The notes under the pieces were generated by a model. The model saw nothing but the letters and a program-made list of their open reading frames with translations, did not search any database and was not told where the DNA came from. A DNA stretch of 64,000 bases, taken from the NCBI RefSeq assembly GCF_030013595.1, contig NZ_CP122768.1, one strand, 5' to 3'. Position 1 is the first letter of the stretch. Each line of letters begins with the position of its first letter. This document shows positions 4,360 to 60,501 of the stretch, in pieces. Source of the DNA: Escherichia coli (GTDB lineage Bacteria > Pseudomonadota > Gammaproteobacteria > Enterobacterales > Enterobacteriaceae). The position numbers and the translations under genes were made by a program.

Positions 4360-7592
<3,233 letters not shown>

Positions 7593-37300: not shown

Positions 37301-39727
37301 TTAAACCTTTTCGATCTGGACAAGATTGCTGTGCGACGGGTTTCCCTTTGCCAGCGGTGAAGGGCGGTGAGAGGTCAGAATATTGATACTGCCGCCGTGA
37401 TCGACCCGGTCACCAAACATATCCGCTTTAAGCCACGCACCTTGCCCGATGGCGGTAACGCCAGGCAGAATACGCGGAGTCACTTTTGCGGCAATCAGCA
37501 TTTCTCCATTATTGTTAAATACCCGCACGGTATCGCCATGACGGATACCGCGTGCCTGAGCATCAATAGGGTTGATCCACACCTCTTGTGGGCAGGCCTG
37601 CTGTAACACATCAATATTGCCGTAGCTGGAGTGGGTACGCGCTTTGTAGTGGAAGCCCGTTAACTGCAGTGGATAGGTTTTCCGCAGGGGATCGTCCCAG
37701 CCATCAAAACCTGGGGTATACGCAGGAAGGGGATGAATAATTTCATCTTTTTTCAATTCCCAGGTATCCGCAATCGTCGCCAGTCGTTCAGAATAAATTT
37801 CGATTTTCCCCGAAGGTGTTTTCAACGGGTTTGCCTGTGGATCTTCACGGAATGCGCGGAAAGCGACGTAGTGTTCTTCCGGGCATTTTTTCTTAAAGAT
37901 CCCGGTCGTTTTCATCTCCTCGTAGTCGGGCATCTCAGGGTTACGTTCCTTCGTTTTCGCATGGAGATATTTGATCCATTCATGCTGACTGCGACCTTCA
38001 GTAAAGGTTTGATAAACGTCTGGTCCTAAGCGTTTGGCAACTTCACTCAGCATCCAGTAGATGGGTTTGCGTTCAAATTTTGCTGAGGTTGCGGGTTGGG
38101 CGAGGATCACATAGCCCATATTCCCGGCAGATTCGTGAGAGATAAGGTCTTCTTGCTCTGTTGGCATCAGGTCGGGCAACAGGATATCGCAATACTTAGC
38201 CGAGGCAGTCATGAAGTGGTCAATGCCAACAATCATCTCGCACTTGCTGTCATCCTGAAGCACCTCATGGGTGTGATTGATGTCGCCATGTTGATTGATC
38301 AATGTGTTACTGGCGTAGCACCATAAAAACTTGATGGGGACATCCAGTTTTTCTTTTCCACGAACACCATCACGGGTCGCGGTCATTTCCGTACCGTGGT
38401 CGATGGCATCTGTCCATGTAAAGACGGAAATCTGCGTTTTAACAGGATTCTCAAGCATCGGGAACCATTCTACCCCCAGATCCCAGCTACCTTCGCGTAC
38501 ACCTGAGTTGCCGCCGTTTATGCCGACGTTACCGGTGAGAACGGAAAGCATGGCAATAGCGCGGGACGTTTGTTCGCCGTTGGAGTGTCGTTGTGGCCCC
38601 CAACCCTGACAAATATAAGCAGGTTTTGCTGAACCGATCTCTCGTGCCAACTGGATAATTTTTTCTGCCGGGATGCTGGTGATTTTTGCTGCCCATTCCG
38701 GCGTTTTAGCTATGCCGTCAGGCCCTTCGCCCAGAATATAGGCTTTATAATGCGCGTTACGTGGTGCGTTGGCGGGCAGCGTTTTTTCATCGTAACCAAC
38801 ACAATATTTGTCGAGAAATGGCTGATCGACCATGTTTTCAGTAATCAGTACCCAGGCAATCGCACAGGCCAGTGCGCCATCGGTGCCTGGGCGAATTGGC
38901 AGCCATTCATCTTCACGCCCGGCAGCAGTGTCGTTATAACGTGGATCGATGACGATCATGCGTGCGTTTGAACGTTCTCGGGCTTGCTCGACGTAGTAAG
39001 TGACACCACCGCCGCTCATCCGGGTTTCTGCCGGGTTATTTCCGAACATAACGACCAGTTTCGTATTGGCTATATCATCCGGGCTGTTGCCATCATTGGC
39101 ACCGAACATATAACTCATTGCGGCACTGATTTGAGCGGTACTGTAGCTGCCATAGCGACTGAGAAAACCACCGCAAGAGTTCATCAGACGGTACGGGACG
39201 TTCGAGTTGGTGATGTTTCCGCCATCTACGCCTGTTCCGTACAGGACATGTACAGCCTCATTGCCGTAATCTTTAAGGATCCGCCGAAGATTATCACTGA
39301 TGGTATCCAGGGCTTCATCCCAACTTATCCGTTCAAATTTACCTTCACCGCGCTTGCCGACGCGCTTCATGGGATATTTCAACCTGTCAGGATGATTCAT
39401 CCGTCGGCGGATAGAGCGCCCGCGTAAACATGCCCGAACCTGATGATTACCGTAGACGTCGTCACCTGTCGTATCAGACTCCACCCAGTACACGGTGTCA
39501 TCTTTCACATGCAAACGTAACAGACAGCGGCTCCCGCAGTTAACGGTGCAGGAACTCCAGACCGCTTTCTCTTCTACCGGTGTCTCTGCCGCTCGGACCA
39601 TTTGGGAAAATGGCAGAGTGAAAGCACTGCTTGCCAGCGCAAGACTGCCAAGTGCGGAGGTTTTCATCAGACTTCTACGGCTGATTTCAGCCTTCATGAG
39701 CGCCTCTGTGGTATGGATTTTCATCAT
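37301..39727 (-). CDS. ynfF: molybdopterin oxidoreductase catalytic subunit (DmsA paralogue), Tat-exported
   Basis: 808 aa, twin-arginine signal (SRRSLMK), Cys motif CTVNCGSRC. Confidence 0.9.
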   Translation of the reverse strand: MMKIHTTEALMKAEISRRSLMKTSALGSLALASSAFTLPFSQMVRAAETPVEEKAVWSSCTVNCGSRCLLRLHVKDDTVYWVESDTTGDDVYGNHQVRACLRGRSIRRRMNHPDRLKYPMKRVGKRGEGKFERISWDEALDTISDNLRRILKDYGNEAVHVLYGTGVDGGNITNSNVPYRLMNSCGGFLSRYGSYSTAQISAAMSYMFGANDGNSPDDIANTKLVVMFGNNPAETRMSGGGVTYYVEQARERSNARMIVIDPRYNDTAAGREDEWLPIRPGTDGALACAIAWVLITENMVDQPFLDKYCVGYDEKTLPANAPRNAHYKAYILGEGPDGIAKTPEWAAKITSIPAEKIIQLAREIGSAKPAYICQGWGPQRHSNGEQTSRAIAMLSVLTGNVGINGGNSGVREGSWDLGVEWFPMLENPVKTQISVFTWTDAIDHGTEMTATRDGVRGKEKLDVPIKFLWCYASNTLINQHGDINHTHEVLQDDSKCEMIVGIDHFMTASAKYCDILLPDLMPTEQEDLISHESAGNMGYVILAQPATSAKFERKPIYWMLSEVAKRLGPDVYQTFTEGRSQHEWIKYLHAKTKERNPEMPDYEEMKTTGIFKKKCPEEHYVAFRAFREDPQANPLKTPSGKIEIYSERLATIADTWELKKDEIIHPLPAYTPGFDGWDDPLRKTYPLQLTGFHYKARTHSSYGNIDVLQQACPQEVWINPIDAQARGIRHGDTVRVFNNNGEMLIAAKVTPRILPGVTAIGQGAWLKADMFGDRVDHGGSINILTSHRPSPLAKGNPSHSNLVQIEKV

Positions 39728-39784: not shown

Positions 39785-40811
39785 TTATATTTTTTCGATC
39801 TCGACCAGATTAGTGTGCTGCGGGTTTCCCTTCGCCAGTGGTGAAGGGCGCAGAGTGGTTAGCGTATTCACACAGCCGCCATGGTCGATTTTATCGCCAG
39901 ACATATTGGCCTCGTGCCAGGCTCCCTGGCCCATAGCGCTAACCCCAGGGAGAATGCGTGGTGTTACTTTGGCTGGTAGCCGAACTTCGCCACGATGGTT
40001 AAACACCCGCACCATATCGCCGTTGGCAATCCCACGTTTCTGTGCATCTATAGGGTTGATCCACACCTCCTGACGGCAGGCTTCCTTCAGGACATCAATA
40101 TTGCCGTAGGTCGAGTGGGTACGGGATTTGTAATGGAAACCAAACAGTTGCAGTGGGAAGGTTCTACGTTCAGGGGAGTCCCAGCCTTCAAAGGTTGAGG
40201 CATAAACTGGCAGTGGGCTTATCACTTCATCTTTTTCCAGTTCCCAGGTACGGGCAATTTCCGCCAGCTTGCTGGAATAAATTTCAATCTTACCGGAAGG
40301 CGTTTTAAGTGGATTTGCCTCGGGGTCGTCACGAAATGCTTTGTAGGCGACAAAATGACCATTGGGATCTTTACGCTTATAGATACCCATTTTTTTCAGT
40401 TCGTCGTAAGACGGTAACGCCGGATCTTTGGCAAGCATTTTGGCGTACAGATGTTGTAACCATTGTTCCTGCGTGCGACCTTCTGTGAACTTTTGATAGA
40501 CGTCAGGTCCAAGACGTTTCGCGACTTCACTCAGGATCCAGTAAATCGGTTTGCGTTCGAATTTTTCGCTGGTGACTGGCTGAAGGAAAATGAGATATCC
40601 CATGTTACCTGCGTAGTCGTTAGGAATAATATCTTCCTGCTCAACGGTCATCAGGTCTGGCAGCAGAATGTCGGCATATTTTGCCGATGAGGTCATAAAG
40701 TTTTCGATGACCACAATCATTTCGCATTTCGATTCGTCCTGCAGAATTTCATGCGTTTTGTTGATGTCAGAATGCTGATTAACCAGGGTATTTCCCGCGT
40801 AGTTCCAGATG
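39785..40811 (-). pseudogene. ynfE: ynfE 3' fragment (codons from about IWNYAGNTL to the C-terminus), separated from its 5' part by a 9.4-kb insertion
   Basis: Translation aligns residue-by-residue with the C-terminal half of YnfF; homology begins exactly at the 11-bp repeat 40801-40811; the track ORF 39785..40951 is a chimera with insert-derived N-terminus. Confidence 0.85.
40801..40811 (+). repeat. left copy of 11-bp direct repeat AGTTCCAGATG (att core or target-site duplication)
   Basis: Identical 11-mer at 50242-50252; joining the flanks restores the in-frame ynfE sequence ...VPIKFIWNYAGNTL... Confidence 0.8.
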
Positions 40812-40876
40812 GACTCCACTGTCAGACGGATGGACGGACTTGAAGTAGTTGACTCAACGCTACTTAAGGTCCTGAT

Positions 40877-42485
40877 ATGACTGACATTAACTATGATAAT
40901 ACTGTATATCCATCCAGCTCTTTCTCTGGGTCTCCCTATCTGTATGGGCAAGTCTACACCTCAAGTCCTGACACAAGGCTGACACAAATCAATCTACTCA
41001 GCGTAGCTAAGCCTCAGTTAGTCCGTAGAGCCAATGGTCGATATACTATCCGCTTCAGACTCAAGGGACAGACCACACCGTTTCTTTCAGTATCGACCCG
41101 AAGCACAGACAGGAGAGTAGCCACAATGCGTCAGAGAGAGCTTGCAGCCACAGCTAAGGCCTTCATGTTGGATAGGCCTGAAGTCTCACTACAGGAGCTT
41201 ACAGAGCATCTCCGGTCTATGGCTGAGCAGTTCCTGACAGACGCTAGTGACGATTACTGGAATGGACTTGAGGTCGCTACTTTGGTGGACGAGAAGTCCA
41301 ACCTGAAGGAGCTAGCCGCTACGCAAGCCTTGAGTCTGGACCAGCAGAAGGGCATAAGGTTAGCGCTTGAAGTCCTGACCGCAGCACAGCAGAGGGTAGA
41401 TACTGGTGATACGTCCAGTCTAATCAAGCTGATTGGTGGTGGCGTAAGCCAGCTTACTGATGGAGATGACAATAACCTTACTAATAACTCAACTATATGC
41501 GACTCTACGTTGATTCTGAGGAACGAGCAGGGGGTCAGCCCGCAAGTATTCACGAGAGAGCGCCAACCATCTGTAGTTTTTTCAAGCCTAGTGTCCTCAC
41601 TGCTGGCTGAGAAGGTCCAGACCCTGAAGTCCTCCAGCTACAAGGACCTGTCGTCCTCACTGAATACCGTCTCTCGGTTTCTGCCTGAAGATATGGACCT
41701 GATGTCCCGCTCTGAGTGGCTGGCAGTGAGGGACGCTATGCTGGCTGCTGAGGTGAGACCATCGACAATCAACAAGCTGCTGACCAAAGCGAAGATGTGT
41801 CTCGATTATGGCCTGATGAATGGGCAACTTGAGGGCCGCAACCCTATTGAACGGATGAAGCTGACCAAGGATACCGACTCCAAGCGCAGAGCGTTCACAG
41901 ACGAGGAGCTGGAGAGACTTCTGGTCCGTGTTGAGGCTGAGTATCAGTTCACACGACACACGGCTCACACGACCTCTGAGGCCCGTAGATGGGCGTCTCT
42001 GGTGTCTGTGGTCACTGGCGCGAGGTCTGCTGAGGTCTGCCACCTGACTAAACGTGACGTTGTAACCTTGGACAATGGACTGGTCTGTATCGACATCAAT
42101 GAAGATGGGGACGGGAAGTCTGTGAAGAACAAACATTCAGTCCGACTTGTGCCGTTAACCGATGGGGCCTGTGGTTTCAGCCTGAAGTCCTTCCTCAAAT
42201 GGGTAGACACTCAGCCTGCTGATGGTCCCCTCTTTGGTATGACTCCGAGTGCCTACTCTAGTTGGTTTAACTCTAGGGTCCTGACTGAGGCCCTAGGAGA
42301 CGCTGAGAACGTTTCTCCACAGTCTGAGACATTGGCTGGCGACCCGAATGAAAGAGCGTGGAGTCAATCTGGTGGACGCTCAAGGCATCTTAGGTCACAG
42401 CAGTCAGTCCATTACGTATGACCTGTACGGGAAAGGACACGCTGTTGGTAGGCTGGCTGAGGTGCTGAAGACAGCTTTACTTTAA
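40877..42485 (+). pseudogene. tyrosine recombinase/integrase with apparent 1-nt frameshift upstream of box II
   Basis: ORF 40877-42421 contains box I (VVTGARSAEVCHLTKRDV) but ends out of frame; the HSLRHWLATRM...LGHSSQSITYDLYGKGH catalytic His-Arg-His-Tyr region is in another frame (42297-42485). True start is probably downstream of 40877, since arm-type repeats lie at 40968-40987. Confidence 0.6.
40968..40987 (+). repeat. two 11-bp-spaced direct repeats CTGACACAA (putative integrase arm-type sites, left arm)
   Basis: CTGACACAAGG and CTGACACAAAT in tandem; same motif recurs three times at the right end. Confidence 0.5.
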
Positions 42486-42562: not shown

Positions 42563-42603
42563 GGAGGGTGATAATAATCATAATCCCTCCTGACTATAGG
42601 CCC
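42563..42603 (+). promoter_or_regulatory. hairpin (GGAGGG-16 nt-CCCTCC) followed by T7-class promoter-like motif CTGACTATAGGCCC
   Basis: Direct reading of sequence; TATAGG core shared with motifs at 42801-43474. Confidence 0.35.
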
Positions 42604-42644: not shown

Positions 42645-42776
42645 GTCTTATTTAAACTGGTTCCCTAACTCAGGTCCTCCAACTTGGTGTCTTATTTAAA
42701 CTGGTTCCCTAACTCAGGTCCTCCAACTTGGTGTCTTATTTAAACTGGTTCCCTAACTCAGGCCCCTCCAAATTTC
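42645..42776 (+). repeat. three tandem copies of a 44-bp repeat (GTCTTATTTAAACTGGTTCCCTAACTCAGGTCCTCCAACTTGGT)
   Basis: Units start at 42645, 42689 and 42733; first two identical, third diverges in its last 14 nt. Confidence 0.85.
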
Positions 42777-42800: not shown

Positions 42801-42855
42801 CCCCTCACCTTAGAAGAGTTTAGGGTTCAGACCCTTAACTATCACCTTAGGAGAG
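42801..42855 (+). promoter_or_regulatory. pair of single-subunit phage RNAP promoter-like motifs (CCCCTCACCTTAGAAGAG and AACTATCACCTTAGGAGAG)
   Basis: Resemble SP6/T3-class promoters (…CACTATAGAAGAG / …CCCTCACTAAAGGGAGA); located just upstream of the 166-aa ORF. Confidence 0.35.
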
Positions 42856-42901: not shown

Positions 42902-43402
42902 ATGGCTATTAAAATTCAGTGCTACACCGAGTCCGACAATGCGGCTTTCTTCGGTGACGATTCCGACCTCCAGCACCAGCTACCAGCACCGACATATGAC
43001 GAACCTAAGGCCCGCACAGGTAAGCCTCCTGTGGTCATCGACAACCGGGCTGTCCGTGCGTGGCTGATTGAGACTGGGTGTCTCTCCTATACGCAGCTTG
43101 TTGAGGCGTACCCGTGGGCTGACGATGTGTTCACAGGACTCTCACGGGCTACCAGTGGCGCTGTCGGTGCTGGACTCCCGGTATCTAAGGCGTACCTGTT
43201 CTCTGCCTTATATGGCACCAACGACATCTTCTCCCGTAACACAGCCAAATCCTACGCTGACATCACTGGGCGTTCACCGTCTCCTCGCTACCTGCGCCAC
43301 GTCAATAGCGTGCTTCAGGCTACGGCTGTGAATCTGGCTAAGGTTCTGAAGGACCGAGGGGATTTCACATGGTGGGATTACAACGATCAGTGCCTGTCCT
43401 GA
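42902..43402 (+). CDS. hypothetical protein (166 aa)
   Basis: ORF with GAGGAGG Shine-Dalgarno 8 nt upstream; no recognisable motifs. Confidence 0.55.
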   Translation: MAIKIQCYTESDNAAFFGDDSDLQHQLPAPTYDEPKARTGKPPVVIDNRAVRAWLIETGCLSYTQLVEAYPWADDVFTGLSRATSGAVGAGLPVSKAYLFSALYGTNDIFSRNTAKSYADITGRSPSPRYLRHVNSVLQATAVNLAKVLKDRGDFTWWDYNDQCLS

Positions 43403-43426
43403 GAGCCGCGCCAGCTCTGGGCTGGA

Positions 43427-43474
43427 ATACCCCCTCACTATAGGGACACCCCCTAAACTATCACTATAGGGGGG
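43427..43474 (+). promoter_or_regulatory. pair of T3/T7-class promoter-like motifs (CCCCCTCACTATAGGGACA and AACTATCACTATAGGGGGGA)
   Basis: First motif matches the T3 promoter core CCCTCACTAAAGGGA at 14 of 15 positions and the T7 core TCACTATAGGGA exactly; no RNAP gene in the element. Confidence 0.45.
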
Positions 43475-43628: not shown

Positions 43629-43712
43629 GTAACCGGCTCATTTAAACCGTCTGGTCTGTTTCCTCCGGCTCTACAAAAATAATGTCCATCATTTTTTAAT
43701 GGACACTATCGT

Positions 43713-44360
43713 ATGAAACACCGGACCTGGATCACTGAAGCTTTACGTCTTCACTTTGAAGAACATTTACCCCGGGTTGTGGCCGGGCGTCGCCTGGGTG
43801 TACCAAAATCAACAGTTTGTAGTATGTTCGTGCGCTTTCGGAGAGCTGGCCTTTCGTGGCCTTTGCCCGCAGGCATGTCGGAGCAGGAACTTGATGCCTG
43901 CCTTTACGGACAATTTTCCACGGTACCAGTCGTACGTCCTGAAAGCACCGTTATATCCGAAGCCCCCGTGGTAAAAAAACGTCCCCGGCGGCCCAACTTC
44001 CCTTATGAGTTTAAAATCGCCTTAGTGGAGCAGTCACTGCAGCCCGGAGCCTGTGTGGCGCAGATCGCCCGGGAAAACGGAATCAACGATAACCTGCTCT
44101 TCAACTGGCGCCATCAATACCGGAAAGGTGGCCTGCTGCCTTCCGGAAAAAATATGCCGGCACTGCTTCCCGTGACGTTAACGCCGGAGCCGGATAATAA
44201 AATCCCGGCCCCCGCACAGGAACCAGAGCAGATAAATACACCGTCCGACAGTCTGTGTTGTGAGCTGGTTCTGCCGGCCGGAACTCTCAGGCTTAAAGGT
44301 AAACTGACGCCGGCGTTATTACAGACACTTATCCGCGAAATAAAAGGGAGCAGCCACTGA
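43713..44360 (+). CDS. IS66-family accessory protein (orf1, HTH)
   Basis: 215 aa first ORF of the IS. Confidence 0.8.
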   Translation: MKHRTWITEALRLHFEEHLPRVVAGRRLGVPKSTVCSMFVRFRRAGLSWPLPAGMSEQELDACLYGQFSTVPVVRPESTVISEAPVVKKRPRRPNFPYEFKIALVEQSLQPGACVAQIARENGINDNLLFNWRHQYRKGGLLPSGKNMPALLPVTLTPEPDNKIPAPAQEPEQINTPSDSLCCELVLPAGTLRLKGKLTPALLQTLIREIKGSSH

Positions 44361-44707
44361 TGATATCTCTCCCTGCAGGTTCGCGTATCTGGCTGGTTGC
44401 AGGTATCACCGATATGCGAAATGGCTTTAACGGCCTGGCATCAAAAGTTCAGAACGTCCTGAAGGATGACCCGTTCTCCGGACACCTGTTCATCTTCCGC
44501 GGACGCCGGGGTGACCAGATAAAAGTGTTGTGGGCTGACAGTGACGGACTGTGCCTCTTCACCAAACGCCTGGAGCGGGGCCGCTTCGTCTGGCCAGTCA
44601 CCCGTGACGGCAAGGTGCACCTTACTCCGGCTCAGTTATCCATGCTTCTTGAAGGTATCAACTGGAAGCACCCGAAACGAACGGAACGCGCTGGAATCCG
44701 CATATAA
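44360..44707 (+). CDS. IS66-family Orf2 (TnpB-like)
   Basis: 115 aa MISLPAGSRIWLVAGITDMRNGFNGLA..., typical IS66 orf2; start overlaps orf1 stop. Confidence 0.85.
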   Translation: MISLPAGSRIWLVAGITDMRNGFNGLASKVQNVLKDDPFSGHLFIFRGRRGDQIKVLWADSDGLCLFTKRLERGRFVWPVTRDGKVHLTPAQLSMLLEGINWKHPKRTERAGIRI

Positions 44708-44726
44708 CCCGTTGTAAAGTGAGGAT

Positions 44727-46298
44727 ATGGACACCTCACTTGCTCATGAGAACGCCCGCCTGCGGGCACTGTTGCAGACGCAACAGGACACCATCCGCCA
44801 GATGGCTGAATACAACCGCCTGCTCTCACAGCGGGTGGCGGCTTATGCTTCCGAAATCAACCGGCTGAAGGCGCTGGTTGCGAAACTGCAACGTATGCAG
44901 TTCGGTAAAAGCTCAGAAAAACTTCGTGCAAAAACCGAACGGCAGATACAGGAAGCACAGGAGCGAATCAGCGCACTTCAGGAAGAAATGGCGGAAACGC
45001 TGGGTGAGCAATATGACCCGGTACTGCCATCCGCCCTGCGCCAGTCTTCAGCCCGTAAACCGTTACCGGCCTCACTTCCCCGTGAAACCCGGGTTATCCG
45101 GCCGGAAGAGGAATGCTGTCCTGCCTGTGGTGGTGAACTCAGTTCTCTGGGATGTGATGTGTCAGAGCAACTGGAGCTTATCAGCAGCGCCTTTAAGGTT
45201 ATCGAAACACAACGTCCGAAACAGGCCTGTTGCCGGTGCGACCATATCGTACAGGCACCAGTACCTTCAAAACCCATTGCACGCAGTTATGCCGGAGCGG
45301 GGCTTCTGGCCCATGTTGTCACCGGGAAATATGCAGACCATCTGCCGTTATACCGCCAGTCAGAAATATACCGTCGTCAGGGAGTGGAGCTGAGCCGTGC
45401 CACACTGGGGCGCTGGACAGGTGCTGTTGCTGAACTGCTGGAGCCGCTGTATGACGTCCTGCGCCAGTATGTGCTGATGCCCGGTAAAGTCCATGCTGAT
45501 GATATCCCCGTCCCGGTCCAGGAGCCGGGCAGCGGTAAAACCCGGACAGCCCGGCTGTGGGTCTACGTCCGTGATGACCGTAACGCCGGTTCACAGATGC
45601 CCCCGGCGGTCTGGTTCGCGTACAGTCCGGACCGGAAAGGTATCCATCCACAAAATCACCTGGCCGGTTACAGCGGTGTGCTTCAGGCCGATGCTTACGG
45701 TGGTTACCGGGCGTTATACGAATCCGGCAGAATAACGGAAGCCGCGTGTATGGCTCATGCCCGGAGAAAAATCCACGATGTGCATGCAAGAGCGCCCACC
45801 TACATCACCACGGAAGCCCTGCAGCGTATCGGTGAACTGTATGCCATCGAGGCAGAGGTCCGGGGCTGTTCAGCAGAACAGCGTCTGGCGGCAAGAAAAG
45901 CCAGAGCCGCGCCACTGATGCAGTCACTGTATGACTGGATACAGCAACAGATGAAAACACTGTCGCGTCACTCAGATACGGCAAAAGCGTTCGCATACCT
46001 GCTGAAACAGTGGGATGCACTGAACGTGTACTGCAGTAATGGCTGGGTGGAAATCGACAACAACATCGCAGAGAACGCCTTACGGGGAGTGGCCGTAGGC
46101 CGGAAAAACTGGATGTTCGCGGGTTCCGACAGCGGTGGTGAACATGCGGCGGTGTTGTACTCGCTGATCGGCACATGCCGTCTGAACAATGTGGAGCCAG
46201 AAAAGTGGCTGCGTTACGTCATTGAACATATCCAGGACTGGCCGGCAAACCGGGTACGCGATCTGTTGCCCTGGAAAGTTGATCTGAGCTCTCAGTAA
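44727..46298 (+). CDS. IS66-family transposase (orf3)
   Basis: 523 aa with N-terminal leucine-zipper-like region, CxxC...CxxC zinc finger and DDE region. Confidence 0.85.
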
Positions 46299-46328
46299 AT
46301 ATCAATACGGTTCTGACGAGTCGCTTAC

Positions 46329-46582: not shown

Positions 46583-46972
46583 ATGACTATTAAATCCATC
46601 GTTATCAACGGTAAGACCATCCTGTCTACACCTAACGCCATCAATGAGGGTGTCTGGTTCGACATGCTTGAGGTCCATCAAGCTGCTGGCTTGCCTGCTA
46701 ACAAGACGTTCTCACAGTGGCGCAGCCGACAGTCTCGTGCATTAGAAGAGGCTGGAGAGGTGTCGTTTGACAGTGTACAGAAGACCCTGTGTGGCAGCTT
46801 TGTGGCAGTGCTGGCCTACCTTATGTGGGCGGACCTTACTCTCTGGCTGGCGGTGGTTCGTTACGTTGCGTCTGAGACTATCGGCGTCCTGCCTGACCGC
46901 TTCAAGTCTATCGACGGTGATAACCCCGAGTTAGAAATGTCAGAGGATAACAGCGAGTGGGAGGACTTCTAA
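46583..46972 (+). CDS. KilA-N domain protein (129 aa)
   Basis: N-terminal pattern (INGKTI...NEGVWFDMLEV...GLPANKTFSQW) and hydrophobic WxxxLxxxL segment typical of KilA-N/APSES DNA-binding domains. Confidence 0.5.
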   Translation: MTIKSIVINGKTILSTPNAINEGVWFDMLEVHQAAGLPANKTFSQWRSRQSRALEEAGEVSFDSVQKTLCGSFVAVLAYLMWADLTLWLAVVRYVASETIGVLPDRFKSIDGDNPELEMSEDNSEWEDF

Positions 46973-46973
46973 G

Positions 46974-47714
46974 ATGACCATGAGCCAGCTTGAAGCATTA
47001 CCTATCGTCATCGAGGGTCATTCATTCATCTGCAACGACCAGCGCATGTGGAACCTGAACGAGATTCACCGAGTGTTAGGTCTTCCAGCAAGCAAGATGC
47101 CGTCTGAGTGGAATAACAAGATTCGCACACAACTTGACCGCTCCGGAAATTTCCGGACCGTGAATGGTGACGGCGGTGGTACATGGGCGACCGAGGCTGG
47201 GACCGTGGCTTATGCTATGTGGGTCTCTACAGATTTCTACCTGATGGTCATCAATGCTTTCATCTTTATGCGTAACGACGCAATCGTCCGAGAGCGTGTA
47301 GCGGTCAAACAGGCTGACGAGGCTAACGCTAACCTCTCCATCGCAGCACCTAAGGCAGACATCTTTGACGGTCGTCTGACCAATGGTGGCTCTGTTCCGT
47401 GGAACTGGGCGTGTAAATCTTTGGGTCTTGCCCCGATGAAACTGAAAGAGGGCTTGAAGCGCTCCGGTAAGTTCGTCCAGAAGTGGAACCCTGACAGTTA
47501 CGCCGACGAGCTTCGACCTCAGGAGAAGGCGTTCAGTATTGGACTATTCGTCACTAAGTCAGTCATGGGTAAAGACACATGGCAGGTGACAGCTAAAGGC
47601 TACGCATGGATGCAGGGGAACGCCCAGAAGTGGAGAGAGCTAATAGCTGATGGTGACCGCTTAAAGGCTGCTGAGCGTCGAGCACAGAAGCGTCTTAACC
47701 GTGGAGGTAAGTAG
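46974..47714 (+). CDS. KilA-N domain protein with C-terminal extension (246 aa)
   Basis: Paralogous to upstream ORF (IEGHSFICNDQRMWNLNEIHRVLGLPASKMPSEW... GTWATEAGTVAYAMWVSTDFYLMV). Confidence 0.5.
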   Translation: MTMSQLEALPIVIEGHSFICNDQRMWNLNEIHRVLGLPASKMPSEWNNKIRTQLDRSGNFRTVNGDGGGTWATEAGTVAYAMWVSTDFYLMVINAFIFMRNDAIVRERVAVKQADEANANLSIAAPKADIFDGRLTNGGSVPWNWACKSLGLAPMKLKEGLKRSGKFVQKWNPDSYADELRPQEKAFSIGLFVTKSVMGKDTWQVTAKGYAWMQGNAQKWRELIADGDRLKAAERRAQKRLNRGGK

Positions 47715-47716
47715 TC

Positions 47717-47941
47717 ATGGCTATGATTGACCCTCGTACACCTATCGGCAAAGCGACCCTTCGTTACCGTGGTCTGCCTACACGTCATCTGCTGTCCCTG
47801 CTGAGACTTGGAGTCGAAGACCCCGAACGCCCGTACTACAGTCGAGACGAGCTAATAGCTATGTTGGTGGACCGTGATTTAGACAATCAGTTACGCCGAG
47901 CCTTTGCGAAGTCTAGCGCAGCTAGGGAACTGGAGTCCTGA
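47717..47941 (+). CDS. hypothetical protein (74 aa)
   Basis: ORF tightly coupled to upstream gene (3-nt gap). Confidence 0.4.
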   Translation: MAMIDPRTPIGKATLRYRGLPTRHLLSLLRLGVEDPERPYYSRDELIAMLVDRDLDNQLRRAFAKSSAARELES

Positions 47942-48146
47942 ACCTTATGGGGCAGAAAAACCGCCGCATAAACCTATCGTCTGCTGACCGAAGTTTCGAC
48001 GCATTGAGCCAGACGGAAAAGTTTTCCTGCTGGTAAACCACCTTAATTTAAACACCTTTTGAGAATGACCGATGCGGGGAGACCCGTAGGCATAACTGTG
48101 TCTGCGATACCGATAGTTCTCACCTTCTCAATAGGAGTACTACCTT

Positions 48147-48638
48147 ATGTTATTCAACAACAACGACTGGAAACTATCAGTCACCGACATCAATCCCTAT
48201 GAAAATACTGTGAGTCTGGACGGTCAGTCCTATCCGCTGTCTCTGGCGATTAAGACCCTGATTCCGGGCTACCTGTCAGGCTTACCGTCCACCAGCCGCG
48301 AGGCGATGGAGTTACTGGAAGCTCTGGCTGAAGCTGGCGTGTCCATTGGCAACTTCTTCAGTAATGACCTGATGACCGCCTATGGTCGCCGCCAGCAGAA
48401 CAAGCGAGCCGAAGCTGAGCGTATTGCTAAAGAGCAGCGCATTCAGGCTGAGCGTATGCGTGAAGAGAACATGACTGATGCAGAGTGGCAGAAAGAGCTA
48501 CAGCGCCGTGAACAGGTCAAAGCTGAACGCCGGACCTATGGTGAGCACCTCCGCAGTGCTACCCATTCCGCTGGGCGCTCCCGTGCTTCTATGGTCGCTG
48601 ACATTGAGTCCACGGACAACTGGATGGACAGCCTCTAA
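48147..48638 (+). CDS. hypothetical coiled-coil protein (163 aa)
   Basis: C-terminal half highly charged and heptad-like (RRQQNKRAEAERIAKEQRIQAERMREENMTDAEWQKELQRREQVKAERR). Confidence 0.5.
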   Translation: MLFNNNDWKLSVTDINPYENTVSLDGQSYPLSLAIKTLIPGYLSGLPSTSREAMELLEALAEAGVSIGNFFSNDLMTAYGRRQQNKRAEAERIAKEQRIQAERMREENMTDAEWQKELQRREQVKAERRTYGEHLRSATHSAGRSRASMVADIESTDNWMDSL

Positions 48639-48704
48639 GACACAGACACACAAGTGGTCCTGACCTGATGTCGGGACCCACAGTATCCAAACTAATTTAG
48701 GAGA

Positions 48705-49700
48705 TTGATTATTATGACGATTAAAGACGCTTTCCAGTTCGGCATTGAGCCAGTACGTATCAGCGACACCGACAACATTCAGATTAACGAAGGTTTGCCA
48801 ACTAACGCAGACCCGCAGGTCTATGCCCTCCAGTTAGCTAAGACGGTTAAGGCTATGCTGAACGGTGTACTTAAAGACGCTCAAGAGAACATCCCGTTCC
48901 CTGTAGAAGTCCTGCCGACCCGCAATAGCCTGCCTACTCCAATCATTGCTCACACTCTGGCTGATCGCTCTGTGGTCGTTCCTGTCCGTGGTGGTAAGCG
49001 ACCTGAAGTCGTGACCGTTCCGTCTGGACAAGAAATCGTGGTCGAACCAATCGAGCAGGCTATTCTCATCTCTGAGCAGACCAAGCTCTGGGACGCCAAG
49101 TCATCCACCGGATTCACTCAGGGCACACTTCAGCAGGACGCTATGAACATCTGTGAGAATGTGGTCCGTACCATCAACGCTCGCATGGTCGACGTTCTGG
49201 AGTCCTCCAAACTGTTGAAGACCGTAGAGCTGCCAGTCCTGACTGGAAGCCTGACCACTAAGGCAGACGCTATCATGGACGCTCTGTTTGAGAACACCGA
49301 GTCCTCTTTCGGCTCTGAAGTGTCTGATTACGGCATCATCGCCCATGAGTCCCAACTGAAAGCGCTGTCCCGTCTGGCAGCTAAACAGGGCTTCTCTGGT
49401 GGAGACGCTATCGTGGATATGCTGGGTACCGACATCGCCTATTACAACGGTGAAGACAAGGGTGTATTCATGCTGGCTAAACGCTTCACGGCCCTGAGCT
49501 TCGGCTGCTTCCGTCACGACGGTGAGAATATTACGGTCGTCCTTTCACGTGATGGCGACTCTCAGTCCCACGACTTGGAAATCCTCGGTAAAGTGTTCGT
49601 TGTCGCTGAAGCTGCTACGACCATCAAGATGGGCACTGGCTCAGCTACTGCCGTCCTGCCTGTAGTCAAACGCCTGAAGTTCACCAAGACCGAAGCGTAA
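48705..49700 (+). CDS. hypothetical protein (331 aa), possible structural/morphogenetic protein
   Basis: Largest non-integrase ORF of the element; follows the coiled-coil ORF; AGGAG Shine-Dalgarno upstream; no motif I can assign. Confidence 0.5.
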   Translation: MIIMTIKDAFQFGIEPVRISDTDNIQINEGLPTNADPQVYALQLAKTVKAMLNGVLKDAQENIPFPVEVLPTRNSLPTPIIAHTLADRSVVVPVRGGKRPEVVTVPSGQEIVVEPIEQAILISEQTKLWDAKSSTGFTQGTLQQDAMNICENVVRTINARMVDVLESSKLLKTVELPVLTGSLTTKADAIMDALFENTESSFGSEVSDYGIIAHESQLKALSRLAAKQGFSGGDAIVDMLGTDIAYYNGEDKGVFMLAKRFTALSFGCFRHDGENITVVLSRDGDSQSHDLEILGKVFVVAEAATTIKMGTGSATAVLPVVKRLKFTKTEA

Positions 49701-49844
49701 GACCAATGGGTAAGAGGTAAGTCTGGACTGAATATCAGCAGGACTTCAGGTGGTGGCCTGTCACTGTGATTAACTAACTACGGTCTGGACCAATGGTCTG
49801 GGCCTTATTACTGGTATGGTAGTATACAGGCGAAGGAGGACCCA

Positions 49845-50000
49845 ATGTCTATGACTTCCGCAGACCTAAGGTCCCTCCTGACTCTGGTCTATAAACTCGT
49901 GTTCCTCTCTGTGGGTCTCTACATGGTTCTCTCTGGTCGACTCGGTGTGGATGTGTTCGACACTCTGTCTAAGGCTGTGGGTGGACTTCTAGGTCCTTAG
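49845..50000 (+). CDS. small single-pass membrane protein (51 aa)
   Basis: ATG with AGGAGGA Shine-Dalgarno; MSMTSADLRSLLTLVYKLVFLSVGLYMVLSGRLGVDVFDTLSKAVGGLLGP; below ORF-track cutoff. Confidence 0.4.
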   Translation: MSMTSADLRSLLTLVYKLVFLSVGLYMVLSGRLGVDVFDTLSKAVGGLLGP

Positions 50001-50153
50001 GTTTGGACTCACAGTGGGACCGATGATTTCTGACAGAAAAATGTGAATGACCATCTAATACATTAAGCCAGCAGACTTCCCCCCATAGTCCCGCCTCAAG
50101 TCCAGACCGAGGCCACCGGGGGTCCTGACCAGCCGTCTAGACATCCCGTCTAA

Positions 50154-50186
50154 TGACACAAGTCTGGCACAAAGCCTGACACAAAG
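50154..50186 (+). repeat. three 11-bp-spaced direct repeats TGACACAAG / TGGCACAAAG / TGACACAAAG (putative arm-type sites, right arm)
   Basis: Same motif and orientation as 40968-40987 at the opposite end of the element. Confidence 0.5.
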
Positions 50187-50241
50187 TCCTTGACTCAATG
50201 CAGGACCTCAGGCCTACTAAGGGTCCGCTTCAAGTCCTTGA

Positions 50242-50252
50242 AGTTCCAGATG
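50242..50252 (+). repeat. right copy of 11-bp direct repeat AGTTCCAGATG
   Basis: Identical to 40801-40811. Confidence 0.8.
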
Positions 50253-51652
50253 AACTTAATGGGCACATCCAGTTTATCTTTGCCGCGGACGCCGTCGCGG
50301 ATTGCCGTCATTTGCGGGCCATGATCGATAGCATCCGTCCAGCTGAAGCAGGAGATTGACGTTTTGACCGGATTATCCAGCACCGGTAGGCGTTCTATGG
50401 TAATGGTATAGGTCGATTCACGCGCGCCACTATTCCCGCCGCTGATGCCGACATTGCCCGTCAAAATAGGCAACATAGCAATAGCGCGTGCGGTCAGCTC
50501 ACCGTTTGCCTGGCGTTGCGGCCCCCAGCCCTGGCAGATATAAGCGGGTTTTGCTGTGCCAATTTCACGCGCCAGTTTGATGATACGGTCCACCGGGATA
50601 CCGGTAATTTGCGAAGCCCACTGCGGCGTTTTCGCTGTTTTATCGTCACCTTCACCAAGAATATAGGCTTTATAGTGACCATTTTTTGGTGCATCTGCGG
50701 GTAAGGTTTTTTCGTCATAGCCGACGCAGTATTTATCAAGAAAAGGTTGATCAACGAGATTTTCGTTAATCAATACCCAGGCAATACCCGCAACCAGCGC
50801 GGCATCGGTGCCCGGGCGAATAGGAAGCCATTCGTCTTCACGACCGGCAGCCGTATCGGTATATCGCGGATCGATAACAATCATTTTTGCGTTCGATTTC
50901 TCGCGCGCTTTTTCAAGAAGATAAGTGATGCCACCACCGCTCATGCGGGTTTCTGCCGGGTTGTTACCAAACATCACGACCAGCTTGCTGTTTTCAATAT
51001 CCGTGGTGCTGTTGCCATCATTACTGCCGTAGGTGTAGGGCATGGCACAGGAAATTTGCGCGGTGCTGTAGGAGCCATACTGGTTGAGTGAGCCGCCGTA
51101 GCAGTTCATCAGGCGTTTGACCGCCGAGGCGGATGGCGAAGAGCGGGTCATATTGCCGCCAACAATCCCCGAAGAGTACTGAATATATACAGCCTCATTG
51201 TCATATTGTTCGACGGTTTTTTTCAGGCTACTGGCGATAGTATCCAGGGCTTCATCCCAGCTAATCCGTTCGAATTTGCCTTCGCCGCGTTTGCCCACGC
51301 GTTTCATTGGGTAATTCAAGCGGTCGGGATGATTAATACGCCGACGGATGGAGCGACCGCGCAAACAGGCGCGTACTTGATGATTGCCATACTCATCGCT
51401 GCCGGTGTTGTCAGTTTCCACCCAGGTCACTTCATTATCTTTAACATGCAGACGAAGTGCACAGCGGCTACCACAGTTGACGGAACAGGCACCCCAGACC
51501 ACTTTCTCGCTGGCCTGTTGTACTGCTGCCGCTGCACTGCGCAGGGTGAACGGTAAAGAAAAACCGCCTGCAGCCAGCGCCAGAGAACCTATCGCGGTAG
51601 ATTTAACGAGTGTTCTGCGGCTGATGCCCACCATTTGTTCATTTTTGGACAT
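50242..51652 (-). pseudogene. ynfE: ynfE 5' fragment (Tat signal and N-terminal about 465 codons)
   Basis: MSKNEQMVGISRRTLVKSTAIGSLALAAGG twin-arginine leader; homology to YnfF ends at ...LDVPIKFIWN where the insert begins. Confidence 0.85.
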
Positions 51653-57801: not shown

Positions 57802-57831
57802 GTAAGCGACTCGTCAGAACCGTATTGATAT

Positions 57832-59403
57832 TTACTGAGAGCTCAGATCAACTTTCCAGGGCAACAGATCGCGTACCCGGTTTGCCGGCCAGTCCTGGAT
57901 ATGTTCAATGACGTAACGCAGCCACTTTTCTGGCTCCACATTGTTCAGACGGCATGTGCCGATCAGCGAGTACAACACCGCCGCATGTTCACCACCGCTG
58001 TCGGAACCCGCGAACATCCAGTTTTTCCGGCCTACGGCCACTCCCCGTAAGGCGTTCTCTGCGATGTTGTTGTCGATTTCCACCCAGCCATTACTGCAGT
58101 ACACGTTCAGTGCATCCCACTGTTTCAGCAGGTATGCGAACGCTTTTGCCGTATCTGAGTGACGCGACAGTGTTTTCATCTGTTGCTGTATCCAGTCATA
58201 CAGTGACTGCATCAGTGGCGCGGCTCTGGCTTTTCTTGCCGCCAGACGCTGTTCTGCTGAACAGCCCCGGACCTCTGCCTCGATGGCATACAGTTCACCG
58301 ATACGCTGCAGGGCTTCCGTGGTGATGTAGGTGGGCGCTCTTGCATGCACATCGTGGATTTTTCTCCGGGCATGAGCCATACACGCGGCTTCCGTTATTC
58401 TGCCGGATTCGTATAACGCCCGGTAACCACCGTAAGCATCGGCCTGAAGCACACCGCTGTAACCGGCCAGGTGATTTTGTGGATGGATACCTTTCCGGTC
58501 CGGACTGTACGCGAACCAGACCGCCGGGGGCATCTGTGAACCGGCGTTACGGTCATCACGGACGTAGACCCACAGCCGGGCTGTCCGGGTTTTACCGCTG
58601 CCCGGCTCCTGGACCGGGACGGGGATATCATCAGCATGGACTTTACCGGGCATCAGCACATACTGGCGCAGGACGTCATACAGCGGCTCCAGCAGTTCAG
58701 CAACAGCACCTGTCCAGCGCCCCAGTGTGGCACGGCTCAGCTCCACTCCCTGACGACGGTATATTTCTGACTGGCGGTATAACGGCAGATGGTCTGCATA
58801 TTTCCCGGTGACAACATGGGCCAGAAGCCCCGCTCCGGCATAACTGCGTGCAATGGGTTTTGAAGGTACTGGTGCCTGTACGATATGGTCGCACCGGCAA
58901 CAGGCCTGTTTCGGACGTTGTGTTTCGATAACCTTAAAGGCGCTGCTGATAAGCTCCAGTTGCTCTGACACATCACATCCCAGAGAACTGAGTTCACCAC
59001 CACAGGCAGGACAGCATTCCTCTTCCGGCCGGATAACCCGGGTTTCACGGGGAAGTGAGGCCGGTAACGGTTTACGGGCTGAAGACTGGCGCAGGGCGGA
59101 TGGCAGTACCGGGTCATATTGCTCACCCAGCGTTTCCGCCATTTCTTCCTGAAGTGCGCTGATTCGCTCCTGTGCTTCCTGTATCTGCCGTTCGGTTTTT
59201 GCACGAAGTTTTTCTGAGCTTTTACCGAACTGCATACGTTGCAGTTTCGCAACCAGCGCCTTCAGCCGGTTGATTTCGGAAGCATAAGCCGCCACCCGCT
59301 GTGAGAGCAGGCGGTTGTATTCAGCCATCTGGCGGATGGTGTCCTGTTGCGTCTGCAACAGTGCCCGCAGGCGGGCGTTCTCATGAGCAAGTGAGGTGTC
59401 CAT
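57832..59403 (-). CDS. IS66-family transposase (orf3)
   Basis: 523 aa product identical to 44727-46298. Confidence 0.85.
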
Positions 59404-59422
59404 ATCCTCACTTTACAACGGG

Positions 59423-59770
59423 TTATATGCGGATTCCAGCGCGTTCCGTTCGTTTCGGGTGCTTCCAGTTGATACCTTCAAGAAGCATGGATAACTGAGC
59501 CGGAGTAAGGTGCACCTTGCCGTCACGGGTGACTGGCCAGACGAAGCGGCCCCGCTCCAGGCGTTTGGTGAAGAGGCACAGTCCGTCACTGTCAGCCCAC
59601 AACACTTTTATCTGGTCACCCCGGCGTCCGCGGAAGATGAACAGGTGTCCGGAGAACGGGTCATCCTTCAGGACGTTCTGAACTTTTGATGCCAGGCCGT
59701 TAAAGCCATTTCGCATATCGGTGATACCTGCAACCAGCCAGATACGCGAACCTGCAGGGAGAGATATCAT
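59423..59770 (-). CDS. IS66-family Orf2 (TnpB-like)
   Basis: 115 aa identical to copy 1. Confidence 0.85.
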   Translation of the reverse strand: MISLPAGSRIWLVAGITDMRNGFNGLASKVQNVLKDDPFSGHLFIFRGRRGDQIKVLWADSDGLCLFTKRLERGRFVWPVTRDGKVHLTPAQLSMLLEGINWKHPKRTERAGIRI

Positions 59771-60417
59771 CAGTGGCTGCTCCCTTTTATTTCGCGGATA
59801 AGTGTCTGTAATAACGCCGGCGTCAGTTTACCTTTAAGCCTGAGAGTTCCGGCCGGCAGAACCAGCTCACAACACAGACTGTCGGACGGTGTATTTATCT
59901 GCTCTGGTTCCTGTGCGGGGGCCGGGATTTTATTATCCGGCTCCGGCGTTAACGTCACGGGAAGCAGTGCCGGCATATTTTTTCCGGAAGGCAGCAGGCC
60001 ACCTTTCCGGTATTGATGGCGCCAGTTGAAGAGCAGGTTATCGTTGATTCCGTTTTCCCGGGCGATCTGCGCCACACAGGCTCCGGGCTGCAGTGACTGC
60101 TCCACTAAGGCGATTTTAAACTCATAAGGGAAGTTGGGCCGCCGGGGACGTTTTTTTACCACGGGGGCTTCGGATATAACGGTGCTTTCAGGACGTACGA
60201 CTGGTACCGTGGAAAATTGTCCGTAAAGGCAGGCATCAAGTTCCTGCTCCGACATGCCTGCGGGCAAAGGCCACGAAAGGCCAGCTCTCCGAAAGCGCAC
60301 GAACATACTACAAACTGTTGATTTTGGTACACCCAGGCGACGCCCGGCCACAACCCGGGGTAAATGTTCTTCAAAGTGAAGACGTAAAGCTTCAGTGATC
60401 CAGGTCCGGTGTTTCAT
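59770..60417 (-). CDS. IS66-family accessory protein (orf1)
   Basis: 215 aa identical to copy 1. Confidence 0.8.
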   Translation of the reverse strand: MKHRTWITEALRLHFEEHLPRVVAGRRLGVPKSTVCSMFVRFRRAGLSWPLPAGMSEQELDACLYGQFSTVPVVRPESTVISEAPVVKKRPRRPNFPYEFKIALVEQSLQPGACVAQIARENGINDNLLFNWRHQYRKGGLLPSGKNMPALLPVTLTPEPDNKIPAPAQEPEQINTPSDSLCCELVLPAGTLRLKGKLTPALLQTLIREIKGSSH

Positions 60418-60501
60418 ACGATAGTGTCCATTAAAAAATGATGGACATTATTTTTGTAGAGCCGGAGGAAACAGACCAGACGGTTTAAATGAGCCGGTTA
60501 C

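Follow-up and report, generated by a model that had tools for sequence, protein, structure and literature searches.

Three consecutive plus-strand genes at positions 48147-50000 of a 64-kb stretch of an Escherichia coli chromosome (hereafter the window, to which all coordinates refer unless another source is named) make up the right-hand end of an integrative element that has inserted in ynfE, and this region is probably the head-morphogenesis end of a minimal integrative satellite of T7-family helper phages of the Kayfunavirus type (K1F/CR44b). An initial annotation had likened the three genes to the scaffold-like, capsid-like and holin-like genes of satellites that redirect the capsid assembly of a T7-family helper; its capsid assignment stands, the link to T7-family phages is borne out by cis-acting sequences, a scaffold is plausible, and the holin was not upheld. 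Related loci that were compared with the window element are labelled L001-L016.

All three open reading frames (ORFs) initially described are present on the plus strand and are genuine genes rather than chance ORFs. The first, ORF163 (48147-48638), is preceded by GGAG 9 nt before its ATG and encodes a putative scaffold and partner of the capsid protein, with a globular N-terminal part and a charged helical tail; the strongly charged C-terminal half noted earlier is evident in residues 81-140, of which 47% are charged (16 K/R, 12 D/E), versus 15% in residues 1-80. The second ORF spans 48705-49700 if read from a TTG codon (331 aa), but AGGAG at 48699-48703 and the N-termini of homologues (MTTIKDAF...) place the start at the ATG at 48714, giving a capsid protein of 328 aa (48714-49700, plus strand); it was thus correctly singled out as the largest ORF without an assigned function in the element, only the integrase being larger, whereas the 331-aa length was not retained. 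The third, ORF51 (49845-50000, plus strand), has the strong ribosome-binding site ascribed to it, a Shine-Dalgarno (SD) sequence GAAGGAGG ending 5 nt before the ATG, and its single moderately hydrophobic segment (maximum Kyte-Doolittle value 1.89 over 17 aa) agrees with the single-pass membrane protein that had been described. ORF163 and the capsid gene are both called hypothetical in RefSeq, and ORF51 and ORF74, a further small gene of the element, carry no annotation there. Of 5426 complete E. coli genomes, 311 have both ORF163 and the capsid gene (297 at a coverage of at least 80%), and both proteins have homologues in other genera, at identities down to ∼20-30%.

Sequence searches with the capsid protein against Pfam, PHROGs, NCBIfam, PADLOC, and PDB returned no match, nor did tblastn among 50,697 phage records. 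A profile search of 1.8 billion representatives recovered 66 relatives, including full-length ones of 310-530 aa, and an AlphaFold2 model built from a 45-sequence alignment reached a pLDDT of 83 and a pTM of 0.77; with 11 close homologues only, pLDDT was 38, so that a confident model needed the distant relatives added by the profile search. Foldseek comparison of this model with the PDB gave 208 matches at E < 1e-3, and the 50 matches listed were all phage capsid proteins, encapsulins, or an encapsulin-derived engineered cage; a fold search of BFVD likewise returned capsid proteins. The model contains the N-arm, long E-loop hairpin, spine helix, P-domain sheet, and A-domain of the HK97 fold; the N-arm is short (residues 1-28 disordered, helix at 34-59), a delta domain is absent, and the closest structures by fold are encapsulins. 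By predicted structure, the large ORF therefore encodes an HK97-fold coat protein, and the protein represents a new sequence family of that fold. The capsid-like assignment of the initial annotation was in this way reached by the structure prediction and fold search it had proposed, and the fold searches gave no enzyme fold, the outcome it had named beforehand as refuting. Its wording of capsid remodelling is inexact: the element encodes no factor for remodelling a helper coat comparable to Sid, CpmB, or TcaP, but a coat protein of its own.

The resemblance to encapsulins raises another explanation, a nanocompartment in which a sealed HK97-fold shell would be loaded with ORF163 through its C-terminal tail and would package no DNA. 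We consider this very unlikely: neither Pfam nor NCBIfam gave a Linocin_M18/encapsulin match, ORF163 is neither an enzyme nor a ferritin-type cargo by family scans, and the phage-type promoters and terminal-repeat mimic described below point to a virion context. Some distant homologues of the coat protein additionally bear a C-terminal Big_2 Ig domain; because such domains typically decorate exposed proteins of virions, this favours a particle outside the cell over a compartment within it. A homologue of 314 aa on a Logan contig (P0023), presumably derived from an element by deletion, joins a KilA-N-like N-terminus to the coat protein’s C-terminal 84%.

All relatives examined, from Escherichia to Aeromonas and including L003, L004, L005, L007, and L008, have a homologue of ORF163 (127-165 aa) directly upstream of their coat gene. 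These homologues share 19-29% identity with ORF163. Recurrent features of the family are an N-terminal IN..N.V...GQ motif, an AG motif, and a charged helix that closes with LRAA...S.G, and its members are known from Escherichia, Shigella, Citrobacter, Enterobacter, Salmonella, Serratia, Yersinia, Photorhabdus, Kluyvera, and Aeromonas. In the PDB, the family profile has a match at E = 5.5e-16 to 5eur_A, a 136-aa “Uncharacterized protein” deposited with three chains, whereas the single ORF163 sequence reached just E = 0.059, and DUF6971 (PF22318) is precomputed on several close homologues. Family-library and Pfam scans with the single sequence gave noise only, no scaffold family match and no similarity to T7-type gp9 were detected, tblastn found no match in the 50,697 phage records, and the literature on SF216/5EUR and DUF6971 yielded nothing usable. 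Some homologues (e.g., WP_000898379.1) are named “peptidase M16 family protein” in RefSeq; our searches did not support this name, which was taken as a mis-annotation.

Gene order and the charged tail fit a scaffold, and a coat protein without a delta domain implies a separate one; ORF163 is thus a plausible, putative scaffold, proposed from gene order, composition, and need. The chief alternative role is that of a trimeric decoration protein. More broadly, the same satellite could use its genes otherwise, with ORF163 as a trimeric decoration or cement protein or a portal adaptor and ORF51 as a lysis or host-killing peptide. The three chains of the 5eur entry and the frequent adjacency of decoration and coat genes are in keeping with this, as are the hydrophobic peptides of 26-29 aa with strong SD sequences that replace ORF51 in some relatives and recall small membrane toxins. 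Against it, a coat protein lacking a delta domain in an element lacking a protease needs a scaffold, for which ORF163 is the sole conserved candidate, and a holin would find no endolysin or spanin partner in the element; these other roles therefore appear rather unlikely to us.

The link to T7-family phages comes from promoters and from the ends of the element, evidence that lies outside the interval covered by the initial annotation but agrees with its proposal of a T7-family satellite. The 11 promoters annotated in Citrobacter phage CR44b (Kayfunavirus) served to build a position weight matrix (PWM), on which genuine CR44b promoters score 29.6-35.4 bits. Within the window, Kayfunavirus-type RNA polymerase (RNAP) promoters were found at 43452-43474 (CCTAAACTATCACTATAGGGGGG, 29.2 bits), heading the rightward operon, and at 42833-42855 (CCTTAACTATCACCTTAGGAGAG, 24.2 bits), upstream of ORF166; both are on the plus strand, which is the coding strand, both lie in intergenic DNA, and such sites occur in the element only, there being no site of at least 12 bits elsewhere in the window. 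By chance, ≤2e-4 sites as strong as the first and ≤7e-3 as strong as the second would be expected per 128 kb. Transcription is predicted from the sequence to start at the G immediately following CACTATAG in a run of CACTATAG and GG, at 42850 and 43469. The equivalent promoter in L001, a relative free of insertion sequences (IS), reaches 33.9 bits, with 24 nt identical to phi10. Exact matches to the 17-mer AAAYTATCACTATAGGG in IMG/VR were mostly on viral contigs of 39-40.5 kb, with two per contig; the one contig examined is a K1F/CR44b/ST31-type phage (a Kayfunavirus relative), in which these sites precede structural genes.

A consensus scan detected T7-group promoter-like 23-mers in all family loci scanned except L008, a 2.6-kb contig, and the strong sites lay on the gene strand (plus) between genes. 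The variants differ by lineage, with ATTAAACCCTGACTATAGGGAGA in the Aeromonas-type locus and a K11-like site in L005; a second promoter-variant scan (TAAACCCYGACTATAG) gave a mixed picture. Tandem sites of different classes were also observed. In the window (43426-43474), a T3-like RNAP promoter-like site (AATACCCCCTCACTATAGGGACA, 43426-43448, plus strand; 18/23 to the T3 consensus, including CCC at -11 to -9) lies 26 nt upstream of the K1F-like promoter, and in L012 (4301-4354 of that locus) CCCACACTATAGG is paired with a K1F-like site. Tandem promoters may allow one satellite to answer more than one helper genus, and in the family members that have them, the different specificities would broaden the helper range. 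Late promoter sites of the P2/P4 type (TGT-N12-ACA) were represented by chance matches only, within int and the IS.

The element is bounded by direct repeats with the consensus AGTTCCAGATG[G/A]ACT, namely the attL core AGTTCCAGATGGACT within ynfE (40801-40815) and the attR core AGTTCCAGATGAACT (50242-50256), and next to each is a sequence resembling one edge of the helper’s terminal repeat (TR). On the attL side, 40919-40946 (plus strand, TCTTTCTCTGGGTCTCCCTATCTGTAT) mimics the right edge of the TR together with the class II RNAP pause motif, matching CR44b 166-191 at 25/27 positions and the end of the T7 TR at 17/21; it is followed by an SRL-like block (AAGTCTACACCTCAAGTCC, 16/19 to T7). On the attR side, 50003-50114 (plus strand) mimics the left boundary, with a predicted cut-site region CATCTAATAC at 50052 and then CCCCCCATAG...AGTCCAGACC. 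Aligned to CR44b 38977-39087, a segment that crosses the left TR edge, it has a local score of 36, compared with 19.7-20.2 for shuffled sequences (standard deviation 2.0-2.4) and 18.6 ± 2.0 for 300 random genomic segments, with a maximum of 27; it also matches the T7 sequence abutting its TR at 19/23 positions and is conserved in L005 and L011. The motif TGACAGAAAAATGTGAATGACCATCTAATAC had been considered as a sigma-70 promoter or IHF site, for which a consensus scan was negative; it aligns to the helper TR boundary.

When the attR side is joined to the attL side, the product is colinear with the helper concatemer junction, including the pause motif CTATCTGTAT, and delimits a pseudo terminal repeat estimated at ∼330 bp (50052-50256 plus 40816-40938). 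The same three blocks were found against T7, more weakly than against CR44b. The sequence ATCTGTT is the class II pause and termination signal of T7 RNAP, with a natural copy at the T7 concatemer junction (bioRxiv 10.1101/2021.01.11.426313). This motif (CTATCTGTA, TCTCCCTATCTGTA, or a close variant) occurs in the other family loci examined, weakly in L016, and lies upstream of the integrase start in L005 and L007. In the window, the annotated N-terminal ∼60-80 codons of the integrase (40877-41000) overlap the TR-edge mimic and the SRL-like block; since the same motif precedes a shorter integrase in L005 and L007, the E. coli integrase start may be mis-called.

Further traces of a T7-type genome are present elsewhere in the element and in its relatives. 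The capsid gene is followed by a hairpin terminator (49782-49804, plus strand; 10-bp stem then a T-rich tail; -15.1 kcal/mol, z = -3.0), an analogue of Tphi, which in T7 comes after gene 10; by eye, the hairpin is retained in L005 with compensatory changes, and Rfam returned nothing relevant. The order of a scaffold-like gene, a coat gene, and a terminator mirrors that of T7 genes 9 and 10 and Tphi. The hairpin loop region TGGACCAATGGTC is also a 13-mer found within the helper TR (CR44b 86-98 and 39110-39122), a match that alone is non-significant (E ∼2). At 42567-42590 (plus strand), past the integrase gene, a 24-mer matches the right end of the helper, between phiOR and gene 19.5, at 23/24 positions (CR44b 38563-38586; blastn-short E = 1e-4). 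In L015, the coat gene is directly followed by an 80-aa homologue of gp7.3 (5844-6086 of that contig; 39% identical to CR44b gp7.3, E = 6e-13); gp7.3 belongs to the virion and is required for adsorption and for assembling the tail.

Behind the coat gene there is always a small gene with a strong SD sequence, of a type that varies by lineage: the ORF51 type (50-51 aa) in the window, L001, L005, L009, L010, and L015, a hydrophobic peptide of 26-29 aa (MDLHKVYLVVFLLKL...) in L011, L012, and L013, and in L016 a 53-aa protein matching phrog_2193, the family of T7 and CR44b gene 19.5, at E = 2e-6. ORF51 is under purifying selection (dN/dS 0.11-0.36) and is still an ORF at 85% nucleotide identity in an element with a capsid protein just 41% identical. 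The gene 19.5 product has ∼50 aa and, in the CR44b annotation, one transmembrane helix, and its gene lies just before the right TR; ORF51 may therefore be viewed as its positional and architectural counterpart, which is a better analogy than the holin or lysis role first proposed, for which there was no holin family match and no endolysin or spanin among the genes of the element. ORF51 has no detectable similarity to gp19.5 or phrog_2193, and tblastn against the 50,697 phage records gave just two chance-level matches (E = 2). Homology was tested for each of the pairs ORF51 and gp19.5, coat protein and gp10A, and ORF163 and gp9, and none was detected.

Ends, promoters, a gp9-gp10-Tphi-like order, and homologues of gp19.5 and gp7.3 recall a T7-type genome, and the window copy is itself damaged, as would be expected if the element were the decayed remnant of an integrated T7-like phage whose leftovers have no current function. 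We judge this highly improbable because random decay would not keep a compact layout of four to six genes with intact ORFs, recurring across genera at 20-40% protein identity, nor precise att boundaries, the purifying selection on ORF51, and promoters that follow different helper specificities by lineage.

The family layout is instead that of a mobile element: an integrase, a regulator (KilA-N, Rha, or Bro-N), the ORF163 homologue, and the coat gene, in this order, within ∼5.5-7 kb. It was found in E. coli, in the Aeromonas-type locus, and on unassigned isolate or metagenome contigs (L004, L007, and L016); the element occurs in several genera at 85-93% protein identity, and two att sites are used, ynfE and tRNA-Gly. 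The L015 and L016 contigs carry homologous elements with comparable bounding repeats. No portal, terminase, tail, or replication genes were found in any family element, including the ORFs of the window element as judged from the ORF list and family-library scans. The element thus has its own integrase and att repeats and lacks genes for autonomous virion production, as satellites do, with the qualification that the integrase of the window copy is frameshifted. As DNA, the right half of the window element matched phages at the IS end only. Element-sized Logan contigs were not circular, had no terminal overlap, and end ∼20-30 nt outside the att repeats; such ends fit a heterogeneous site or repeats shared by the paralogues ynfE, ynfF, and dmsA and are not proof of excision. 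A sister lineage in E. coli (L012 and L013) is located at tRNA-Gly next to the ETT2 island; it encodes a DUF4145 protein and a Rha-family regulator where the window element has its KilA-N genes, and a hydrophobic peptide of 26 aa where that element has ORF51.

The same features could describe an anti-phage decoy, primarily a defence island, in which the coat-like protein and ORF163, expressed from the helper promoters, would poison or sequester T7-type head assembly and the junction mimic would titrate terminase, the element itself not being transduced. Expression tied to the polymerase of the invading phage, a coat protein unrelated in sequence to that of the helper, the many IS-disrupted or integrase-defective copies that retain an intact capsid module, and the DUF4145 cargo gene of one variant would all suit such a role. 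Yet the invariant core of an integrase-bearing mobile element with two att sites in several genera consists of the coat gene and its partner, the junction mimic is whole only across attP, and the Ig-domain versions of the coat protein and the homologue of the virion protein gp7.3 make most sense for an extracellular particle; moreover, in known satellites interference and transfer can coexist. A decoy without transfer is therefore unlikely.

If the element is a satellite, its cycle would begin with infection by a helper, whose single-subunit RNAP would transcribe ORF129, the KilA-N gene, ORF74, ORF163, and the coat gene; given the phage-type promoters, the operon would be switched on by the helper only. 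T7-type promoters can also act as origins for the T7 replisome. The element would excise, and the junction mimic would become complete only in a circular or concatemeric form, at which the helper terminase, with RNAP paused at CTATCTGTAT, would cut, so that unit-length DNA of ∼7 kb would be packaged. Class II pausing at the T7 junction is needed for packaging, and T7-type packaging proceeds from junction to junction rather than by the headful; because it is not headful, a 7-kb unit would badly underfill a T=7 head and would need a small shell, for which capsid volumes give T=3 or 4 as a rough estimate. The element’s own coat protein, with ORF163 as internal scaffold, would build this shell around the portal, core, and tail parts of the helper, and the small shell would shut out the 39-kb helper genome.

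Several observations weigh against this satellite model. It is drawn from sequences, and its small-capsid argument comes from textbook T7 packaging rules. The coat protein has no detectable sequence similarity to helper gp10/gp10A; since the coat protein and ORF163 are unlike gp10 and gp9, the fit of a foreign coat on a T7-type portal and core is left unexplained. The scaffold role of ORF163 is assigned from position and composition only, and the three chains of the 5eur entry would suit a trimeric decoration protein too. No excisionase or replication function was recognised in the element. The IMG/VR loci found by close alignment were provirus calls from isolate genomes only and gave no virome support, and the many element copies with IS insertions, like the broken integrase of the window copy, fit domestication or decay as well.

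The insertion itself splits ynfE, leaving its C-terminal piece to the left of the element and its N-terminal piece to the right; ynfE is on a list of targets whose integrity integrative elements control (PMC7192596). Without its IS the element is ∼6.7 kb long and comprises, in order, the integrase, three 44-nt tandem repeats, ORF166, an IS66-family insertion, ORF129, a P1-KilA-like gene, ORF74, ORF163, the capsid gene, and ORF51. The tyrosine integrase (40877-42482, plus strand; phrog_1, E = 6e-24) is frameshifted near 42315: residues 473-528 of an intact 528-aa relative, including HSLRH...YDLYG, are found by tblastn in another frame at 42300-42482, so that the catalytic C-terminus is displaced out of frame. 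The tandem repeats (42645-42776, repeat family D1, with identities of 100%, 100%, and 80%; GTCTTATTTAAACTGGTTCCCTAACTCAGGTCCTCCAACTTGGT), which may be origin or regulator sites, are placed between the integrase and the first phage-type promoter, and a related sequence, CTTAATTTAAAC, occurs at 48036, upstream of ORF163. ORF166 (42902-43402) and ORF74 (47717-47941), both on the plus strand and taken from the ORF list, had no family match. ORF129 (46583-46972, plus strand) is KilA-N-like by eye and hypothetical in RefSeq, and the adjacent 246-aa KilA-N protein (46974-47714, plus strand) matches phrog_129 and phrog_63 at ∼1e-11 and is 27.5% identical to phage P1 KilA across 83% of its length.

The IS66-family insertion (tnpA/tnpB/tnpC, 43629-46328, plus strand) is secondary, being missing from L001, and it splits the phage-type promoters from the satellite operon. 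A second, identical 2700-bp copy lies inverted at 57802-60501, ∼7.5 kb past the element, and recombination between the two would invert the capsid module. Because of the integrase frameshift and the IS66 copy between promoters and operon, the window copy is probably immobile, and it is probably a fossil; intact copies of the element are known in other strains, for instance E. coli MB20 (NZ_CP073976, ∼2230.3-2236.9 kb), where the copy is free of IS and its integrase is unbroken. Independent IS insertions were seen in other copies as well (IS100 in L002, IS66-family elements in L005 and L012, and ISEc12 in L013), recurrently either between the left-hand genes and the ORF163/coat pair or within the regulator gene, which could reflect a target hotspot or selection silencing the operon.

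T7-like phages are textbook examples of fast, self-sufficient virulent phages and are widely used in therapy and biotechnology. Full-text literature searches, of incomplete coverage, found no satellite of T7-like phages and no description of this element. On the broadest statement of our findings we are evenly divided: that these are the first recognised satellites of T7-family (Autographiviridae) phages, elements of ∼6-7 kb that would sense the helper solely through RNAP promoters, rebuild its junction upon excision, and place their own small HK97 capsid and DUF6971-type scaffold on a borrowed portal, terminase, and tail, and that occur in E. coli (∼6% of complete genomes) and in other genera, among them Citrobacter, Enterobacter, Salmonella, Serratia, and Aeromonas. 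If so, that share of E. coli genomes would hold an element that stays silent until a T7-type RNAP appears and then diverts the helper packaging machinery into heads with a foreign coat; for therapy with K1F-like phages, it would matter as a natural factor in both resistance and transduction. It would also be the smallest known capsid-encoding satellite, would offer a natural test of HK97 coat swapping under a given portal and terminase, and would provide a function for the solved orphan structure 5eur (DUF6971). Because the satellite retains only the junction parts needed, it would further serve as a testable model for pac recognition of the T7 type.

Among known systems, the “Mini” temperate tailless HK97 entities (Aguilar et al., bioRxiv 10.1101/2025.06.18.659913) are ∼9 kb in length and carry an integrase, coat, and scaffold without portal, terminase, or tail. 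They come from human-gut metagenomes and have encapsulin Pfam coat domains, replication genes, and sigma factors, whereas the coat protein of the present element has no Pfam match, and no link to a helper, promoter, or packaging site was reported for them. The PICMIs are minimalist satellites of virulent vibriophages with very small gene content (PMC10803314). The element shares with them its very small gene content and the virulent type of its proposed helper; they differ in that they are reported to have no capsid-remodelling genes and to package concatemers into helper-sized heads.

T7 itself resembles the element in the order of scaffold-like gene, coat gene, and terminator, in a small gene with one transmembrane segment before the TR, and in promoters, TR edges, the ATCTGT pause signal, and SRL-like repeats. 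It differs in that the proteins are not detectably homologous, except for gp19.5 and gp7.3 in other family members, and in that the ∼330-bp pseudo terminal repeat of the element is split by attP. P4 Sid, SaPI CpmA/B, and PLE TcaP give small heads that fit the satellite genome and exclude that of the helper; the same small-head outcome is proposed here, but these proteins are scaffolds that reshape the helper coat, and none of them is known to bring a coat of its own.

The closest enterobacterial analogue is provided by the cf-PICIs (e.g., EcCI2), which are reported to encode all capsid-forming and DNA-packaging proteins and to take only tails from the helper. The full cf-PICI set of portal, protease or scaffold, coat, head-tail connectors, and TerS is absent from the ORFs of the present element, which has just a coat gene and one partner, and for which portal, terminase, and tail must be borrowed. 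In function, the closest analogue is Ccm, the cos capsid morphogenesis protein of the Staphylococcus pathogenicity island SaPIbov5, a coat homologue that this satellite encodes for DNA packaged by cos. Ccm recognisably resembles the coat protein of its helper, with which it is homologous and co-assembles, and the SaPI helper is a temperate siphovirus; here, by contrast, the proposed helper is a virulent T7-type podovirus, the coat protein is unlike gp10 in sequence, and a SaPI is more than twice as large as the element.

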